Program-made: the position numbers and the translations under genes | Notes under the pieces: model-generated | Told to the model about the DNA's origin: nothing | Database searches by the model: none | The model's input: the letters and a program-made list of their open reading frames with translations, nothing else | IMG/VR virus record: IMGVR_UViG_3300045988_142058 | Source of the DNA: a virus | Taxonomy: Duplodnaviria; Heunggongvirae; Uroviricota; Caudoviricetes | DNA: 47,591 nt | Direction: 5' to 3' (one strand) | Part shown: piece after piece, positions 18,817 through 44,705 of the stretch | Layout of the letters: each line of letters begins with the position of its first letter | How positions within the stretch are numbered: position 1 is the first letter of the stretch

Positions 18817-19368
18817 TTATTCTTCCTGCTTAATAAATCGGGATTCCTGGAGCGCCTGAAGCGCAAAATTAATCTCGTCTTCAATAATGCGTTCGATCTC
18901 CCTGGCTGTTTTGCCTTCACAACGGGGAGCTGCTCTTGGAGCAATACTAAATAAGCGGCTACGCAATTCATTAGCTGCCAGAAATGCATCATCCCTGACC
19001 GCATCTTTAGCGATGAGAGAGCCTTCCTTTTCTTCAAATTCAAGGCGTTTCAGCTTTGCCTGATAAATTTTTTCTGCGGTCTTAGCCTTGTTGAATTGCA
19101 CCGCAACACCGGAAGTACCACCAGCTAATCCGGCATCATCAGCGGGTAACTCTGGTTGTTCCGAAGATATCCCATGCCCTCTTTTTCCATTTTCAGCAGA
19201 TACCTCACGGCCAACCTGTCGGCTCGCTTCATAAGCCGCACTGGCTTTATCAAAATCCAGCTTGCCGCTTTTCAGCACTGGAATGCGACCGGAACGACAG
19301 AGCTTCGTAACCATTGCCGGAGAAATACCTTTCCGGCGGGCAAACTCTGACTTACTGACGATGACCAT
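18817..19368 (-). CDS. Terminase small subunit
   Basis: First ATG at 19368 (track TTG at 19377); N-terminal HTH SKSEFARRKGISPAMVTKL. Confidence 0.6.
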   Translation of the reverse strand: MVIVSKSEFARRKGISPAMVTKLCRSGRIPVLKSGKLDFDKASAAYEASRQVGREVSAENGKRGHGISSEQPELPADDAGLAGGTSGVAVQFNKAKTAEKIYQAKLKRLEFEEKEGSLIAKDAVRDDAFLAANELRSRLFSIAPRAAPRCEGKTAREIERIIEDEINFALQALQESRFIKQEE

Positions 19369-19958
19369 TACTTGCAACCATTAGCAAGATACTGAACAAA
19401 TCCCTCATGCGTTTCATGCGCGTCGTGGTACTGACGATAAACATCCAGCAACAATGCAATTTCCATATCCGTCGCGGGAATACGTTCTTTATCAATAGCC
19501 AGGTACTTAATTTGAACAACAGGGGAAGAATTATCGTCTTCTTCCTGCGGCTGTTCATCGCTTAACATTTCGTCAAGCTCTGCATCATTAAACCCAAGCA
19601 GATCAATATCAAAATCATCATCCATTAACTCTTTGACTTCTTCGGCCAGAAGCTGCATATCCCAGCCAGCATTTAAGGCCAGCTTGTTATCTGCAATCCT
19701 GTACGCCTTCTTCTGTTTTTCAGAAAGGTTACTCAACCGAATCGCCGGAACTTTATCCATTTCCAGAATTTCGGCTGCTGCAAGCCGACCATGCCCCGCA
19801 ATCAGTTCATTCTTTTCATCGATCAGCACAGGATTAGTGAAACCGAACTCACGGATACTGTTCACCAACTGTTCAACCTGCTCATCTGAATGAGTCCGTG
19901 AATTTTTGGCGTATCTGAGCAGCTTACCGACTGGTAAATATTCGATTTTTAGAGCCAT
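19368..19958 (-). CDS. ParB-like nuclease domain protein
   Basis: 196 aa; ParB N-terminal motifs (NPVLIDEKNELIAGHGR, QKKAYRIADN); paralog of 22625..23248. Confidence 0.75.
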   Translation of the reverse strand: MALKIEYLPVGKLLRYAKNSRTHSDEQVEQLVNSIREFGFTNPVLIDEKNELIAGHGRLAAAEILEMDKVPAIRLSNLSEKQKKAYRIADNKLALNAGWDMQLLAEEVKELMDDDFDIDLLGFNDAELDEMLSDEQPQEEDDNSSPVVQIKYLAIDKERIPATDMEIALLLDVYRQYHDAHETHEGFVQYLANGCK

Positions 19959-26129: not shown

Positions 26130-26205
26130 TGGTGGCCCCTACCGGATTTGAACCGATGACCGTGCGATTATGAGTCGCCTGCTCTAACCACTGAGCTAAG
26201 GGGCC
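26130..26205 (-). tRNA. tRNA with CAU anticodon, tRNA-Ile2 (lysidine)-like, CCA encoded
   Basis: 76 nt cloverleaf GGCCCCUUAGCUCAGUGGUUAGAGCAGGCGACUCAUAAUCGC...GGUUCAAAUCCGGUAGGGGCCACCA; 7-bp acceptor stem; resembles E. coli ileX from memory; elongator Met not excluded. Confidence 0.8.
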
Positions 26206-34581: not shown

Positions 34582-34596
34582 ACCACGATATGTGGT
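34582..34596. promoter_or_regulatory. Operator ACCAC-gatat-GTGGT in cI/cro intergenic region
   Basis: Perfect inverted half-sites, 5-bp spacer. Confidence 0.6.
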
Positions 34597-34602
34597 ATTA
34601 AA

Positions 34603-34617
34603 ACCACATATCGTGAG
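34603..34617. promoter_or_regulatory. Degenerate operator ACCAC-atatc-GTGAG
   Basis: Adjacent to first operator; right half imperfect. Confidence 0.4.
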
Positions 34618-34684
34618 TTTTTCAATGGGCGAAACAAAAAATAACCTTCTATTTGTGGTCCACCTCTCGTCTTACCATGTGAAA

Positions 34685-34699
34685 ACCACTAAATGTGGT
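34685..34699. promoter_or_regulatory. Operator ACCAC-taaat-GTGGT near cI start
   Basis: Perfect half-sites, 38 bp upstream of cI ATG. Confidence 0.6.
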
Positions 34700-34736: not shown

Positions 34737-35393
34737 ATGAAAAGCAACGACGAGAACATCAAGAAAGAAATAGGTCTGCGCATTCAGACTCTACGGAAAC
34801 AATCCGGCATGACTGCCGGAGATCTCCAGCAAGTCACTGGAATAGGCTTAAGCACCTTGCAGAACTATGAGGCCGGATTAAGACAACCATCTATACCTGC
34901 CATCAAGAAAATCGCGCACGCCCTGAAAGCATCAGCGCCTTATATCGCGTGCTTAACAGATAACCCGTTCCCACCCCAGAATACTAACGCTCCTGTTATT
35001 CCTGGGCTTGTAGCTATAAAAAATGACATAGCATCGCACGCCGGAGAAAAGCCAGTGCTGGCGATAGAACAGGAGATTCTACGAAGCAAGAACATCAACC
35101 CATCGTCTCTGTCAGTTCTCCAGAGCAACGATGAGTTAATGTCACCAACAATATCCCCTGGCTCCCAAGTCCTGATTAATACAGACGATACAGAGATTCA
35201 TGAGGGGATCTATGCCCTTGAAGACAGAAATGGCCTGGTTGTTTTGAGGCACTGTAGAGTCATACCGGGTGACAATGCTGTTATGCTGTCAACCGAAAGG
35301 GATGCTGAAATGAACACTAAGCATCTGAATAACGAGGAATTTAAGCGTTATAAAGTTCTGGGCCGCGTAGTTAGTGTTGTCAACTGGTTATGA
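34737..35393 (+). CDS. CI-like repressor (HTH + LexA/S24-like C-terminal domain)
   Basis: 218 aa; N-terminal HTH (LRKQSGMTAGDLQQVTGIGLSTLQNYEAG); C-terminal S24-like fold. Confidence 0.8.
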   Translation: MKSNDENIKKEIGLRIQTLRKQSGMTAGDLQQVTGIGLSTLQNYEAGLRQPSIPAIKKIAHALKASAPYIACLTDNPFPPQNTNAPVIPGLVAIKNDIASHAGEKPVLAIEQEILRSKNINPSSLSVLQSNDELMSPTISPGSQVLINTDDTEIHEGIYALEDRNGLVVLRHCRVIPGDNAVMLSTERDAEMNTKHLNNEEFKRYKVLGRVVSVVNWL

Positions 35394-35435: not shown

Positions 35436-35450
35436 ACCACATTTTGTGGT
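35436..35450. promoter_or_regulatory. Operator-like ACCAC-atttt-GTGGT downstream of cI
   Basis: Perfect half-sites; after hairpin 35401..35416; could also act as weak terminator. Confidence 0.45.
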
Positions 35451-37178: not shown

Positions 37179-37200
37179 AAAAAAGGCCCCCGAAGGGGCC
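37179..37200 (-). terminator. Intrinsic terminator for small-peptide transcript
   Basis: GGCCCC-cgaa-GGGGCC followed on minus RNA by UUUUUU; 7 nt after peptide stop. Confidence 0.6.
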
Positions 37201-37206
37201 TAATCG

Positions 37207-37329
37207 CTACTTGCTGCTAATGTTTATCGTCACATTCAGAGCGTTATCAGTAATCTTCCAACCCTCCCCATGTGGCGTAAACAAAGCTCCAGTAACAACG
37301 ATAAAAATACACATACAGTATTTTTTCAT
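37207..37329 (-). CDS. Small hydrophobic peptide (40 aa), candidate type I toxin
   Basis: MKKYCMCIFIVVTGALFTPHGEGW...; AAGGG RBS; intrinsic terminator immediately after stop; upstream leader carries 15-nt antisense target. Confidence 0.4.
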   Translation of the reverse strand: MKKYCMCIFIVVTGALFTPHGEGWKITDNALNVTINISSK

Positions 37330-37622
37330 TGTATGGCCCTTACAGGCCGTTTCACGGCATCCCCACCGACGAAAACAACGCGAGAGCAAGCACGGCTGCT
37401 TGTGCTTGCATGTACGGCAACAGGAAATCCTCCCCTAAAGTCGGTGCCCGGGTGCGAATCGGCGGGAAGGTCCACAGGTATTTTACGATTATTTTAAGAT
37501 TAGTAATAGGAAAGAAATTAAACGAAAAAAACAGTTTATTTTCACAAAATCAGTAACCTACCCACAATCTGTGAGTTTGCTGACACAACAAGAACCACAA
37601 TTTTTTGATGTATAATAGTGGA

Positions 37623-37753
37623 CTATTATTACCTTTTGAGTAAAATCAATTTGCTGCTTGTGCTTGCGTGGTTGTTTATACAACAACGTAATGCTGAAAG
37701 GACCGCGAATCCGATCAGCACGAAAGAACCGTCCTCAATAGGGCGGTTTTTTT
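37623..37753 (+). ncRNA. Candidate ~130 nt small RNA (antitoxin-like)
   Basis: TATAAT -10 at 37611..37616; intrinsic terminator at 37728..37753; contains GCTGCTTGTGCTTGC (37653..37667). Confidence 0.4.
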
Positions 37754-37772
37754 GTTTCTGCCTACCAATAAA

Positions 37773-37787
37773 CCCACGCTATGTGGT
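37773..37787. promoter_or_regulatory. Near-operator CCCAC-gctat-GTGGT in antirepressor leader
   Basis: One mismatch to consensus; between sRNA terminator and ant operon. Confidence 0.3.
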
Positions 37788-37900
37788 TGTCTCTGTTAAA
37801 ATCCCGCCGTATTGACATGAATGCGCCATTGGTGGACACTTTCCGAGCCGTAGCAAAATCTACGGTCGGGATTAGCCTCCTGAATAACACGATGGCGCAT

Positions 37901-37921
37901 ACCGCGTTAGCGGTTTTTTTA
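37901..37921 (+). terminator. Second intrinsic terminator in antirepressor leader
   Basis: ACCGC-gtta-GCGGT followed by TTTTTTT. Confidence 0.45.
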
Positions 37922-38082
37922 TGCGTAGAGCACTGTTACGCCCAAATTATGGTGGGTCGTACAGGGGCGGAGAAATCCGCGCCGGTTCGTCATTGTGTCC
38001 GGTAAGGCTAACCCTGTACGGCTCACCACCATTTGATTAGCCTCGAATGGCGGTGATAGTTCCATATACTGGAGATATCACA

Positions 38083-38274
38083 ATGACAAACCTACCCCAT
38101 GACTATTACGTCAACCTCGTAAAGATCCTTCTCAAGAAAGCCTCATACGCCGATAAATTCCGCCTGGCTGAAATCATCGAGCGCGAAGCTATGCGCATCG
38201 CCAGCAACGATAACGCTGTTTCTGACGCAAAAATCTCCCTCGTAACCAAAGTAGTTATGGGAGGTGCAAAATGA
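38083..38274 (+). CDS. Hypothetical small protein upstream of antirepressor
   Basis: 63 aa, GGAGA RBS, stop overlaps antirepressor ATG. Confidence 0.4.
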   Translation: MTNLPHDYYVNLVKILLKKASYADKFRLAEIIEREAMRIASNDNAVSDAKISLVTKVVMGGAK

Positions 38275-39452
38275 AAACGCTTCCGACCGTTAACACCCTA
38301 CAGCCTATCCTGCATAACCAGCTCCCCGTTATCACTACTGAACTACTGGCGCAATTGTATGGAACCGAGCGCCAACGTCTGACAAACAATTTCAATAGAA
38401 ACAAGGAACGTTTTATAGAAGGTAAACACTTTTTTAGGATAGAAGGTAAAGAGTTACGAGAGTTGAAGAACAAAAACTCTTTAAGAGTTCCTGTGAGAGT
38501 AGTTAACGAACCATCTTTAAGAGGGTTACAAATTCCCCCGAAAGTTCGCTCCCTCATCCTCTGGACAGAACGCGGGGCTGCACGTCACGCCAAAATGCTT
38601 GAAACTAACCAAGCGTGGGATGTGTTCGAACGGCTGGAAGACTGCTATTTCAACCAGAACGCACAAACGGCCGCGACCGTTACCGTCTCGCCAAGCAATG
38701 CTCGTGAGGTTGTCGATACGCTCAACGCCAAACCGATGTTTTACATTAAGGTGTGCAATAACGAGCCACTCACAACCTCAGCCGATGTTGCCCAGGCATT
38801 CAGCACCACAAACAATTCCATCGTTATGGCCATCGATGCGTTACGCATTCCTCGCACAGCTGCGGCGCGTCATTTCTTTAAAGAGCAACGACCGTTGGAA
38901 GGAAGCGACCGCGAAATAACAATCTATCGCATGACAAAAGACGGATTTACCTTGCTCATGGAGAGCATCGACGGTCCAAGCGTGAAAGATATCAAGCTGG
39001 CCTACATTGAAGCCTTTAACGCTATCAGCAGCGTGTTAAAAACACAGTACGAGCGTGATCTGGCTAAACGACTGTACCAAGAAAAAACGATTATCCGCGC
39101 GGCAACAGAGCATAATCGGCTATTAACGGAACCGAACTACAGGAAGGAACTAATCAAGGAGTTTGACAAGGCAACAGGGAAAACCAAAGCGGCGCTAAAT
39201 CTGCCAGCAATGACTCAGGAAAATGTGATATCAGCCTTACTTCTTGATCTGCTCAGAAACGCCAGAGCACTTATCAGCTTTGACGAAAACCTGAATCCTC
39301 AGCTCAAGCTACTACCACCGACAGGCAAAGTAGTCGACCAAGCTGATCACAACAGCATACTCAGCGTACTGGATGCAAACCTGCCAGCCAAGACACTACA
39401 GGATCTGATAAAAACATGTGCTGATAAGCTGGCACAGAAAAGCAGACCATAA
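38271..39452 (+). CDS. Antirepressor (ORF6N/ANT N-terminus, Rha-like C-terminus)
   Basis: 393 aa; N-terminal LPVITTELLAQLYGTERQRLTNNFNRNKERF; terminator after stop. Confidence 0.75.
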   Translation: MKTLPTVNTLQPILHNQLPVITTELLAQLYGTERQRLTNNFNRNKERFIEGKHFFRIEGKELRELKNKNSLRVPVRVVNEPSLRGLQIPPKVRSLILWTERGAARHAKMLETNQAWDVFERLEDCYFNQNAQTAATVTVSPSNAREVVDTLNAKPMFYIKVCNNEPLTTSADVAQAFSTTNNSIVMAIDALRIPRTAAARHFFKEQRPLEGSDREITIYRMTKDGFTLLMESIDGPSVKDIKLAYIEAFNAISSVLKTQYERDLAKRLYQEKTIIRAATEHNRLLTEPNYRKELIKEFDKATGKTKAALNLPAMTQENVISALLLDLLRNARALISFDENLNPQLKLLPPTGKVVDQADHNSILSVLDANLPAKTLQDLIKTCADKLAQKSRP

Positions 39453-44690: not shown

Positions 44691-44705
44691 ACCACGTTAC
44701 GTGGT
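44691..44705. promoter_or_regulatory. Operator-type ACCAC-gttac-GTGGT in repA leader
   Basis: Same half-sites and spacing as immunity operators; ~100 nt downstream of putative repA promoter. Confidence 0.5.

Follow-up and report, generated by a model that had tools for sequence, protein, structure and literature searches.

Organization of the locus

The stretch of DNA analysed here, hereafter called the window, is 47,591 nucleotides long. Upstream of a gene for an antirepressor-like protein, it carries a series of regulatory features borne by a ~47-kb Escherichia phage-plasmid, and to the left of this series lies a toxin-antitoxin pair (Table 1). The region had been described in a first-pass annotation as a single structured leader with four features, namely two intrinsic terminators, a near-consensus operator and a long-range pairing. 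All four were found, either at the positions given there or a few bases away, and each of them goes beyond chance expectation. They are split between two modules: the first terminator goes with a TimR-like RNA, whereas the others lie in an immI-type module that extends from 37770 onward.

Table 1. Features of the antirepressor locus and of its left neighbour (positions in the window)
Feature	Position	Strand	Basis or remark
ryfA/timP type I toxin mRNA	37179-37475	-	Rfam RF00126, 143.5 bits (gathering score 80)
TimP-like ORF, 39-40 aa	37207-37326	-	NF040796 toxic_TimP, weak match, 19.5 bits (cut-off 45)
Predicted TimR-like antitoxin sRNA	37653-37759	+	Ends at the intrinsic terminator 37728-37753
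Probable antirepressor control module	37770-38274	+	Operator, two predicted promoters, IsrK-family RNA, C4 RNA, a2/b2, leader ORF
Predicted repressor operator	37773-37787	.	CCCAC-GCTAT-GTGGT (CCCACGCTATGTGGT); motif enrichment and homology edge
Predicted extended -10 promoter	37794-37802	+	TGtTAAAAT, read from the sequence; position of P1 P2c4 (P51a)
Predicted second promoter	37814-37842	+	TTGACA-N17-GACACT; TSS near 37847-37849
IsrK-family RNA, three hairpins	37847-37920	+	Rfam RF01394, 65.7 bits (gathering score 50)
Target copy a1	37872-37878	+	UUAGCCU, in the loop of hairpin 2 of the IsrK-like RNA
Target copy b1	37887-37897	+	ACACGAUGGCG, immediately 5' of the terminator hairpin
C4 antisense RNA	37945-38033	+	Rfam RF01695, 70.8 bits (gathering score 45), E = 7e-12
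Predicted mature c4	about 37951-38030	+	Alignment to the annotated 77-nt c4 of P1
b' segment	37988-37998	+	Loop of c4 hairpin 2
a' segment	38005-38011	+	AGGCUAA, single-stranded in c4
Target a2	38037-38043	+	UUAGCCU, 4 nt past the Rfam C4 match; identical to a1
SD-sequestering hairpin	38053-38081	+	Holds GGAG 38071-38074 of the leader ORF (folding)
Target b2	38079-38092	+	Core CACAAUGAC at 38079-38087, covers the AUG 38083-38085
Leader ORF, 63 aa	38083-38274	+	Position of P1 icd; phrog_7886, E = 2e-47, function unknown
Antirepressor-like protein, 393 aa	38271-39452	+	ORF6N PF10543, E = 1e-21; Phage_pRha PF09669, E = 2e-12

The neighbouring ryfA/timP gene and the predicted TimR-like RNA

The ryfA/timP gene belongs to a neighbour module that is outside the antirepressor leader. 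The first 18 nt of the TimR-like RNA (37653-37670) are complementary to the ryfA mRNA (37395-37412): a repeat search returned the two segments as an 18-nt direct repeat (17/18) and, as both copies lie on the plus strand, one of them is complementary to the minus-strand ryfA RNA. In relatives (L013, L003/L011), a change in one copy is matched in the other. A promoter-like site, TGGACT-N16-TAAAAT (37619-37646), is located ahead of the TimR-like RNA. At the terminator (37728-37753), a U-tract comes after a AACCGUCCU/AGGGCGGUU hairpin of -17.8 kcal/mol (z = -4.0), and none of 200 shuffles gives an equal fold.

As described by Andresen et al. (2020, PMC7667032), TimR is a divergent sRNA in which an intrinsic terminator comes after a stretch of ~18 nt that can pair with the ryfA 5' UTR, and this arrangement of ryfA, divergent complementary sRNA and terminator is found here. 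The likeness comprises the score of the ryfA covariance model (143.5 bits), the complementarity of 17/18 nt and the intrinsic terminator. The two systems differ in that the published timP(ryfA)/TimR pair is chromosomal whereas the present one is carried by a phage-plasmid, where the TimP-like peptide is divergent (19.5 bits versus a cut-off of 45). Other Rfam matches over 37638-37758 (RNAI with 26.7 bits, Phe and Thr leaders) are sub-threshold and are better explained by a terminator-rich TimR-like RNA. In four relatives (L003, L004, L009 and L011), ~680 bp lie between the terminator and the operator, this insertion encoding a minus-strand HTH protein. The terminator at 37728-37753 is thus the end of the predicted TimR-like antitoxin sRNA and lies outside the antirepressor module.

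Predicted operator and promoters

The core of the operator motif, CCAC-N5-GTGG, occurs five times in the window (0.39 expected), and none of 100 shuffles has as many. Two of the copies, together with one variant, are located in the region where the cro-like and cI-like genes diverge. Because the motif is enriched and has copies in this region, the sequence at 37773-37787 is plausibly an operator for the CI-like repressor that the window itself encodes at 34737-35393, and the near-operator of the first-pass annotation is supported. It is also the leftmost conserved element of the module, as homology starts exactly there in relatives that have three different left flanks.

Two promoters, at 37794-37802 and 37814-37842, are inferred downstream; both were picked by eye and by conservation, and a consensus scan reported neither of them. 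The operator covers the -35/spacer region of the upstream one, a geometry that fits the annotation of P1, and the TGnTAnAnT element is retained in L013, a 75%-identical relative (TGGTAGATT). The downstream one has the position of P1 P1c4 (P51b) and of Gifsy-1 PisrK. Its TTGAC box is kept in all relatives, in P1 and in Gifsy-1, at a constant distance to the first hairpin, and its -10 hexamer is weak (3/6 positions match). The predicted layout, in which the enriched motif overlaps the upstream of two promoters picked by eye, would be that of the tandem-promoter operator of P1 immI.

The IsrK-family and C4 RNAs

The IsrK-family match spans positions 1-77 of the Rfam model. The last hairpin of this RNA (stem 37901-37914, U-tract to 37920) is an intrinsic terminator; the second terminator of the first-pass annotation (37901-37921, ACCGC-GUUA-GCGGU then U7) is this very hairpin. 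The c4-a1b1 model (RF03163) gives 35.7 bits at 37834-37886, where it overlaps the isrK match; this is below its threshold of 46.7, which is passed by Gifsy-1, L016 and P1. The window and 11 related loci have an IsrK element directly upstream of a C4 RNA and an antirepressor gene.

The C4 match is full-length (model positions 1-87) and adjoins the isrK match in order. A closing stem of 17 bp (37950-37966/38012-38028), whose arms were returned by the repeat finder as 24 nt with 83% complementarity, encloses two hairpins and a 3' single-stranded segment. The MFE structure (-46.6 kcal/mol, z = -6.35) is the Rfam structure and survives when the whole 264-nt leader is folded; among nine homologues including P1 and Gifsy-1, compensatory changes affect 9 of the 27 consensus pairs. 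The long-range pairing noted earlier (37959-37967 with 38011-38019) is real but is part of this closing stem instead of a cis attenuator. It had been given as 9 bp around a single local hairpin; it comprises 8 Watson-Crick pairs and one mismatch, forms the inner half of the 17-bp stem and surrounds two hairpins. Beyond the first description, two exposed segments of the c4 fold are complementary to sites on either side.

Members of the C4 family are characterized by a 5' cut by RNase P that yields a stable RNA of ~77 nt from the operon's own leader. The junctions of c4 are conserved, with AAUUAU/GGUGGG at the 5' end and CACCACC at the 3' end, and by analogy c4 would be excised from the leader as a stable RNA. 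Concerning possible coding functions of this segment, an orf45-like ORF running through c4 was rejected since its frame is closed after 18 codons, and no Pfam or NCBIfam match was obtained for the other ORF that overlies c4 (37921-38040).

These data make it very improbable that the leader acts purely in cis, with two tandem intrinsic terminators and the long-range pairing attenuating transcription into the antirepressor gene. The two terminators are real plus-strand hairpins with U-tracts upstream of ant, as this explanation supposes, but they do not form a single attenuator unit. Indeed, the first one carries the TimR signature, with the 18-nt ryfA/timP complementarity that co-changes in relatives, is split from the operator by ~680 bp in four of them and lies upstream of the predicted leader promoters. 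As for the long-range pairing, it is the stem that closes a C4-family RNA.

Target sites and their co-variation

The exposed segments a' and b' of c4 are complementary to a1 and b1 within the IsrK-like RNA and to a2 and b2 downstream of c4. The 10-mer GATTAGCCTC, which includes a2, recurs unchanged around a1 (direct repeat 37870-37879/38035-38044). The a2/a' duplex has 7 bp (-9.0 kcal/mol, RNAduplex) and the b1/b' duplex 11 bp, including two G-U pairs. Over c4 37984-37997, b2 is complementary at 13 of 14 nt (14-nt inverted repeat, 93%), with 9 bp contiguous, and the b2/b' duplex reaches -13.2 kcal/mol (RNAduplex). As a control of the method, RNAduplex applied to P1 returned exactly the annotated a1, b1, a2 and b2. 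For the window, the same program gave a1 at 37871-37879, b1 at 37886-37898, a2 at 38036-38044 and b2 at 38078-38088.

Among relatives, variation in the c4 loops goes along with variation in a1, b1, a2 and b2. Matched a'/a1/a2 triplets are of six types (UUAGCCU, UUGGCGU, UUGGAAC, UUGACAG, UUCGAAA and CUAGAAA), b', b1 and b2 are matched in at least five types among relatives, and a cross-matrix of duplexes gives the cognate pair as the strongest in nearly all rows. In the window, the exact b2 9-mer is found only at b2 and, as its complement, inside c4, and exact a sites only at the antirepressor leader locus. Further c4 targets elsewhere in the window were sought and rejected, exact sites being confined to the locus and matches with one mismatch being at chance level.

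The first-pass annotation had proposed that the antirepressor is controlled by antisense RNA or attenuation, as in P1 and P22. The P1 part of this proposal holds, as a C4-family RNA and an IsrK/a1b1 element are present in the order annotated for P1 immI. The P22 part finds no support. The antirepressor operons of P22-like phages use a sar-type antisense RNA and an Arc/Mnt arrangement; control of this P22 immI type would involve a sar-like antisense RNA transcribed from the opposite strand and small Arc/Mnt-like repressors. However, the RNA families found here are all on the sense strand, no Arc/Mnt-like ORF is adjacent and a consensus scan found no minus-strand promoter-like site within 37754-38100, in agreement with a negligible likelihood for such control.

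The location of b2, which is on the start codon here and on or beside the SD in relatives and P1, is that expected for a translational block. Another possibility is a termination control of the P4 CI or N15 CA type, in which a c4-like RNA bound to a1/b1 and/or a2/b2 of the nascent RNA would provoke premature termination at the IsrK terminator or via Rho, the block of translation not being primary. In the window, b1, which abuts the terminator hairpin, has the 3' half of the IsrK terminator as an alternative partner (-10.1 kcal/mol for the alternative b1 hairpin versus -8.0), and masking b1 brings back the canonical terminator fold. Furthermore, seqA/CI/seqC of P4 was named as a structural analogue of IsrK, and STnc1160, the c4 homologue of Gifsy-1, was suggested to modulate the IsrK terminator (PMC4825925). 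However, the alternative hairpin is not conserved, being absent from the predictions for L004, L006, Gifsy-1 and P1. A conserved antiterminator at the IsrK terminator was rejected on the same grounds, the canonical terminator fold being found in these four, of which L004 and L006 have other b types. Given this and the location of b2, termination control seems quite unlikely.

The satellite phage P4 resembles the arrangement proposed here in having a small RNA (CI) that is excised from the transcript leader of the very operon under its control and has complementary sequences upstream (seqA) and downstream (seqC). The CA RNA of N15 immA is likewise reportedly (Ravin et al. 1999) a small RNA of phage-plasmid immunity that is released from the leader of its target operon and has complementary sequences on either side. 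Both RNAs are described as causing premature transcription termination, and they are likened to c4 by description. Unlike in P4 and N15, the distal target on the start codon points to translational repression in the present case.

The leader ORF and the antirepressor gene

The predicted SD-containing hairpin is kept in relatives with differing sequences (UUCCA/UGGAG in the window, CCUUAA/UUAAGG in L020). The leader ORF is kept at 66-100% identity in 13 viral contigs, and its stop codon overlaps the start codon of ant (ATGA). The 393-aa product of ant, which is the regulated cargo of the module, matches many PHROG families labelled anti-repressor and has phrog_2379 in common with AnrP of Gifsy-1.

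BLASTP gave no alignment between the leader ORF and Icd of P1 and only noise between the 393-aa protein and Ant1 of P1. The RNA control module is homologous to that of P1 immI whereas the cargo genes are not. Since homology to Icd and Ant1 is lacking, the case for translational coupling of ant and for Rho polarity consists of the ATGA overlap and of two C-rich, G-poor stretches (C/G ratios of 2.5-2.7 at 38074-38153 and 38274-38353) and is suggestive.

Relationships with P1 immI and Gifsy-1 isrK

The order of elements is identical to that of P1/P7 immI, i.e. Oc4 (Op51)/P51a, P51b, a1, b1, a terminator-like hairpin, c4, a2, b2, icd and ant (ant1/2). In P1, as in the layout predicted here, the upstream member of two promoters is overlapped by the repressor operator, the two -10 hexamers are 40 bp apart, and the predicted TSS of the downstream member coincides with the start of the first hairpin. 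The c4 RNAs belong to the same Rfam family and share both terminal junctions, a2 lies directly after c4, b2 is at the TIR of the short ORF, and the end of this ORF overlaps the start of ant (ant overlap of 4 nt). The differences concern the cargo (phrog_7886 leader ORF and an ORF6N/Rha Ant here, Icd and a KilAC Ant1 in P1), the location of b2 (start codon here, SD in P1) and the a1/b1 element, which reaches the isrK gathering score and has a clean terminator here whereas that of P1 scores 35 bits. They also concern the repressor, a CI-like protein of HTH/S24 type with a palindromic ACCAC-N5-GTGGT operator here and C1 in P1.

The isrK-orf45(STnc1160)-anrP locus of the Salmonella prophage Gifsy-1 (Hershko-Shalev et al. 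2016, PMC4825925) has the same succession of an IsrK RNA with a read-through terminator, a C4 RNA and an ORF6N antirepressor gene. It shows a/b complementarities in all three places and ~69% nucleotide identity over 37852-38058. It differs in that orf45 runs through c4 and no separate ORF is found between c4 and anrP, in that a single strong promoter (TTGACA-N18-TATATT) is present with no ACCAC-N5-GTGGT operator, and in its location downstream of the antiterminator gene antQ, the upstream neighbour here being the timP/TimR pair. In Gifsy-1, transcripts from PisrK reach anrP by reading through the IsrK terminator; in the default state they are not translated, and IsrK provided in trans switches their translation on. 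Both this trans-activation and the binding of Hfq by IsrK have been described for Gifsy-1 only (PMC4825925). In Gifsy-1 lysogens, IsrK and STnc1160 are highly expressed while the lytic genes are silent (PMC7067206). Furthermore, the toxicity of IsrK was not suppressed but became more pronounced when the STnc1160/orf45 region was expressed constitutively (PMC4825925), which fits poorly with a simple picture where c4 represses and IsrK relieves.

The window might accordingly be under positive control of the Gifsy-1 type: the mRNA would be silent through cis pairing between IsrK and c4, the short IsrK-like RNA would open it in trans, and c4 would be mainly a structural element of the mRNA with no separate repressor RNA. 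The closest experimentally studied homologue operates in this way (PMC4825925). The window contains the same IsrK element, terminator and SD-sequestering hairpin, and the complementarity of a1 and b1 to c4 segments would allow IsrK-c4 pairing in cis or in trans. However, when the whole 264-nt leader is folded, c4 is retained and a long-range helix between IsrK and c4 ("structure A") is not predicted. In addition, the frame of orf45, which would run from the AUG of AAUUAUGG inside c4 to the start of anrP, stops after 18 codons, so that an orf45-based coupling cannot operate in the window, where a separate 63-aa ORF follows c4 as in P1. Finally, a2 and b2 co-vary with c4, as predicted for a repressor duplex formed at the TIR in trans or in cis. 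Control of the Gifsy-1 type is thus considered unlikely, albeit conceivable.

With its RNA families, its folds, its complementarities and their co-variation, its ATGA overlap and its operator motif, all given by the sequence and the comparisons, the segment 37770-38274 is probably (with a probability of about 0.75) a control module for the antirepressor operon, of the P1 immI/Gifsy-1 isrK type. Its regulatory behaviour is deduced by homology, and the module would be a new example of its type, the mechanism being already established in phage P1.

Proposed mechanism

The most likely mode of action is that c4 blocks the translation of the leader ORF, and hence that of Ant, and that the IsrK-like RNA competes for c4. 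By analogy with P1 and Gifsy-1, from which promoters, processing, translational block, polarity and decoy role are deduced, the process may be viewed as follows. Transcription would start at the two predicted promoters, the upstream one being overlapped by the operator for the CI-like repressor. Most transcripts would end at 37901-37920 and give an IsrK-like RNA of ~74 nt that carries a1 and b1. Transcripts that read through the terminator would contain c4, which would be cut from the leader as in P1. The a' and b' segments of c4 would then pair with a2 (38037-38043) and b2 (38079-38087) on the mRNA and, because b2 covers the start codon of the leader ORF, ribosome binding would be blocked. 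Since ant starts inside the stop codon of the leader ORF, it would stay untranslated, and probably also untranscribed through Rho polarity. The IsrK-like RNA would pair with the same segments of c4 and is most likely a competitor that relieves repression as leader transcription rises. In P1, a1 and b1 are annotated as "putative" targets only, which counts against this scheme.

A further step, which we regard as tentative and rather doubtful, would be to see the IsrK-like RNA as a dedicated sponge of c4, the locus then being a three-RNA switch whose a and b specificities recombine within one phage-plasmid backbone. Each transcript would yield one decoy, whereas c4 and its target would come solely from read-through transcripts. 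The terminator would thus convert promoter activity, itself set by the prophage repressor at the operator, into a ratio of decoy to antisense.

Biological significance

The locus provides a full parts list for the immunity/antirepressor switch of a common family of ~47-49-kb Escherichia phage-plasmids. This family includes a plasmid of the reference strain ATCC 25922 (NZ_CP009073.1), where the module lies at about 19161-19494. For this stretch, the RefSeq annotation gives only "hypothetical proteins". IsrK of Gifsy-1, the a1/b1 sites of P1 and c4 RNA are parts of one conserved module, and one terminator is reassigned to the adjacent toxin-antitoxin pair. These findings leave the current understanding of such switches unchanged. 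The three-way co-variation is unusually clear, and the relatives, among them L004, L006, L007 and L008 with their natural a/b types, offer specificity variants that are ready for testing the role of a1 and b1.

If the IsrK-like RNA does act as a sponge, a1 and b1, still annotated as "putative" in P1, would have a function, and a switch made of decoy, antisense and target would tie the loss of the repressor to the synthesis of the antirepressor, with positive feedback. At least five combinations of matched a/b specificities are found in one backbone, some of them being common to Stx and Gifsy prophages. If these specificities are indeed exchanged, they would define heteroimmune types and might allow cross-talk among unrelated prophages that reside in the same cell.

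The antirepressor switch and its RNAs

The leader of the antirepressor gene can be recognized from its sequence as a typical, previously unannotated switch of the P1 c4/IsrK family, located beside a timP/TimR-like pair. An Rfam scan at gathering thresholds detected three families at the locus (isrK, C4 antisense RNA and ryfA); the c4-a1b1 model also matched 37834–37886, below threshold. RefSeq annotates only CDSs around the switch, those downstream being a "hypothetical protein" and an "ORF6N domain-containing protein".

Predicted features of the switch and of its regulatory surroundings
Feature	Position	Strand	Detail
ryfA	37179–37475	−	RF00126, 143.5 bits
Operator copies, ACCAC-N5-GTGGT	34582–34596, 34603–34617, 34685–34699		cro/cI intergenic region
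Operator copy, ACCAC-N5-GTGGT	35436–35450		just 3' of cI-like gene
Operator copy, ACCAC-N5-GTGGT	44691–44705		intergenic, near 44.7 kb
Extended −10 (TGtTAAAAT)	37794–37802	+	−35/spacer overlapped by operator
Promoter TTGACA-N17-GACACT	37814–37842	+	40 bp 3' of extended −10 promoter
isrK	37847–37920	+	RF01394, 65.7 bits
a1	37872–37878	+	loop of IsrK hairpin 2; complementary to a'
b1	37887–37897	+	11 bp with loop b' (37988–37998), including 2 G-U pairs
C4 antisense RNA	37945–38033	+	RF01695, 70.8 bits
a2	38037–38043	+	just 3' of c4; complementary to a'
b2	38079–38087	+	CACAAUGAC; complementary to b', 13/14 nt when extended to 38092

The first-pass annotation had listed two terminators, a near-consensus operator and a long-range 9-bp pairing in this leader, and all four exist in the sequence. 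The isrK match identifies the second predicted terminator (37901–37921, ACCGC-GUUA-GCGGU then U7) as that of IsrK. The 9-bp pairing is real but is only the inner part of a 17-bp stem (24-nt arms, 83% complementarity), which the C4 match and the c4 fold identify as the predicted closing stem of c4. This fold is very stable (z = −6.35), persists when the whole leader is folded and shows compensatory changes in 9 of 27 pairs among nine homologues including P1 and Gifsy-1. The antisense or attenuation control guessed earlier was thus right in kind, whereas its parts list was wrong; the cis attenuator then proposed and a P22-type sar RNA were considered as alternatives and are both unlikely.

A 39-aa ORF (37921–38040, +) overlaps the c4 gene and has no match in Pfam or NCBIfam. 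An "ash family protein" CDS is annotated over the equivalent isrK–c4 stretch in some public records (H14, H80); as the window ORF lacks such matches, these CDS calls were probably read from an RNA gene.

Targets are named here following the P1 annotation. The single-stranded c4 segment a' (38005–38011, AGGCUAA) is complementary to a1 and a2, which are embedded in an identical 10-mer, and the exact a and b sequences have no other occurrence within the window. Site b2 covers the AUG (38083) of the 63-aa leader ORF, whose Shine-Dalgarno GGAG (38071–38074) lies inside a predicted local hairpin (38053–38081). The stop of this ORF overlaps, as ATGA, the start of a 393-aa ORF6N + Rha protein matching many "anti-repressor" PHROGs.

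Operators and promoters

The operator-like site reported at 37773–37787 (CCCACGCTATGTGGT) is present: its core, CCAC-N5-GTGG, is common to four other sites, and these five occurrences in the window compare with 0.39 expected (no shuffle reached five). Two of them and one variant lie between divergent cro-like and cI-like genes (34582–34699), the latter with an HTH_3 match and a weak Peptidase_S24 match. This dispersal suggests that one repressor may control several operons, like C1 of P1.

Since a consensus promoter scan listed neither leader promoter, both are inferred from their motifs. All relatives, P1 and Gifsy-1 retain the TTGAC box; the predicted start of its promoter falls at the first IsrK hairpin, like that of P51b in P1. 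The extended −10 and an operator variant, ACCAC-N5-GTGAT, are kept in a 75%-identical relative (L013).

Comparison with P1 and Gifsy-1 and proposed mechanism

The annotated order in P1 immI is Oc4 (Op51), P2c4 (P51a), P1c4 (P51b), a1, b1, c4, a2, b2, icd, ant1. The window elements follow the same order, and in both the operator lies over the upstream promoter (Oc4 overlaps the −35 of P2c4). In P1 too, b1 is followed by a hairpin resembling a terminator (isrK model, 35 bits), and ant1 is annotated as overlapping icd by 4 nt. The window leader ORF and antirepressor are not homologous to Icd and Ant1.

The isrK-STnc1160-anrP locus of Gifsy-1 is ~69% identical to the window over 37852–38058. Its published orf45 (L002 3102–3239) starts at the AUG inside AAUUAUGG, the conserved c4 5' junction, and runs across all of STnc1160 and the a2/b2 targets to finish on the anrP start. 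The equivalent window frame closes after 18 codons and is not conserved; here the window is P1-like, its leader ORF being separate and downstream of c4.

Sequence and comparisons establish the family membership, the folds, the complementarities that co-vary three ways, the location of b2 over the AUG, the ATGA overlap and the operator motif; the regulatory steps of the following model are drawn by analogy with both systems. The leader would be driven by repressor-modulated and constitutive promoters, and most transcripts would end as an IsrK-like RNA. Read-through transcripts would yield c4, which would block initiation at the leader ORF and, by coupling and perhaps also by Rho polarity, keep Ant off; C-rich, G-poor stretches do occur here. 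The IsrK-like RNA would compete for c4. Two alternatives are less likely: termination control of the P4/N15 type and Gifsy-type activation through cis structure. In the published Gifsy-1 work, anrP is transcribed from PisrK when transcription passes the IsrK terminator; the mRNA is translationally silent, and short IsrK switches it on in trans (PMC4825925). Lysogens contain abundant IsrK and STnc1160 (PMC7067206). What speaks most against a simple repressor/decoy model is a Gifsy-1 result: over-expressing the STnc1160 region left IsrK toxicity unrelieved (PMC4825925).

The timP/TimR-like neighbour and the host element

The first terminator (37728–37753) forms a strong hairpin with a U-tract after it (−17.8 kcal/mol, z = −4.0), but it lies outside the antirepressor leader and would belong to a TimR-like sRNA. 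The stretch 37653–37670 (+) repeats 37395–37412 at 17 of 18 positions and is thus complementary to the ryfA/timP mRNA (minus strand) within its 5' UTR. Transcription from a promoter-like site (37619–37646) would begin at this stretch, with the terminator next. Such complementarity followed by a terminator is the signature of the TimR antitoxin sRNA (PMC7667032). Among relatives, changes in one repeat copy are matched in the other (GCTGCTTGTGC, GCTTACTTGTGC, GCTGTTTGTGC). A complete ryfA/timP toxin mRNA (−) and the divergent TimR-like sRNA (+) directly adjoin the switch (37179–37760).

In five relatives (L003, L004, L009, L011, L021), an insert of ~680 bp, coding for an HTH protein on the minus strand, separates this terminator from the operator, at a point corresponding to 37760–37770, and marks a recombination or cargo hot spot. 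Homology with several plasmids starts exactly at 37770, which together with the insert places a module boundary at ~37760–37770. The encoded protein is of XRE type (179–191 aa among the relatives); in L004 the insert lies at 1504–2183.

Among complete E. coli genomes, 75 of 78 matches were on plasmids, and 59 PLSDB plasmids match the window, one from ATCC 25922. The structural half is 98–99% identical to Escherichia phage vB_EcoM-613R2 and Yersinia phages vB_YpM_39/41/44. The window can therefore be classed by sequence as a phage-plasmid, of a family of circular ~47–49-kb non-mobilizable Escherichia plasmids whose structural genes are myovirus-like. The ryfA/timP and TimR-like pair may act on it as a plasmid-stabilising type I toxin-antitoxin. 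A tRNA gene (26133–26205, −; Rfam tRNA, 67 bits) has the anticodon loop CAU. The antirepressor is intact in the window (393 aa), unlike that of the 98%-identical plasmid p142_C (6772–7971), a truncated ORF6N pseudogene plus a separate Rha-family CDS.

Matched specificities among relatives

The comparison covered 13 viral contigs that carry this small ORF, along with two plasmids, Gifsy-1 and P1; in every case the ORF is preceded by an IsrK element and an RNA of the C4 class. In L014 (2379–2464) and L015 (2376–2460), the C4 RNA is replaced by an RNA that matches Rfam sRNA-Xcc1 (RF02221, 70–76 bits), 5' of homologues of the 63-aa ORF. Two exposed segments of this RNA are complementary to upstream sites and to sites at the downstream Shine-Dalgarno, the same logic as that of C4.

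The specificity determinants vary from one locus to another, and those of any one locus always match: six a-types (UUAGCCU, UUGGCGU, UUGGAAC, UUGACAG in P1, UUCGAAA and CUAGAAA) and at least five b-types were found, each at all three places (c4 and the sites on either side of it). An RNAduplex cross-matrix ranked the cognate pairs best or joint best in nearly all rows; the P1 control returned exactly the annotated a1, b1, a2 and b2 coordinates. By their combinations, compared with window 37870–38092, otherwise near-identical backbones group as L003/L004, L006/L009/L010/L012/L020, L007 and L008/L011/L021.

Plasmid backbones that are otherwise 85–98% identical carry at least five (a, b) combinations. 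This indicates that specificity is exchanged as a module, an exchange also known between P1 and P7. Some a-types are shared with Gifsy-1 and other prophages. Taken with the matched combinations, these shared types suggest that heteroimmune variants exist and that cross-talk between such elements is possible.
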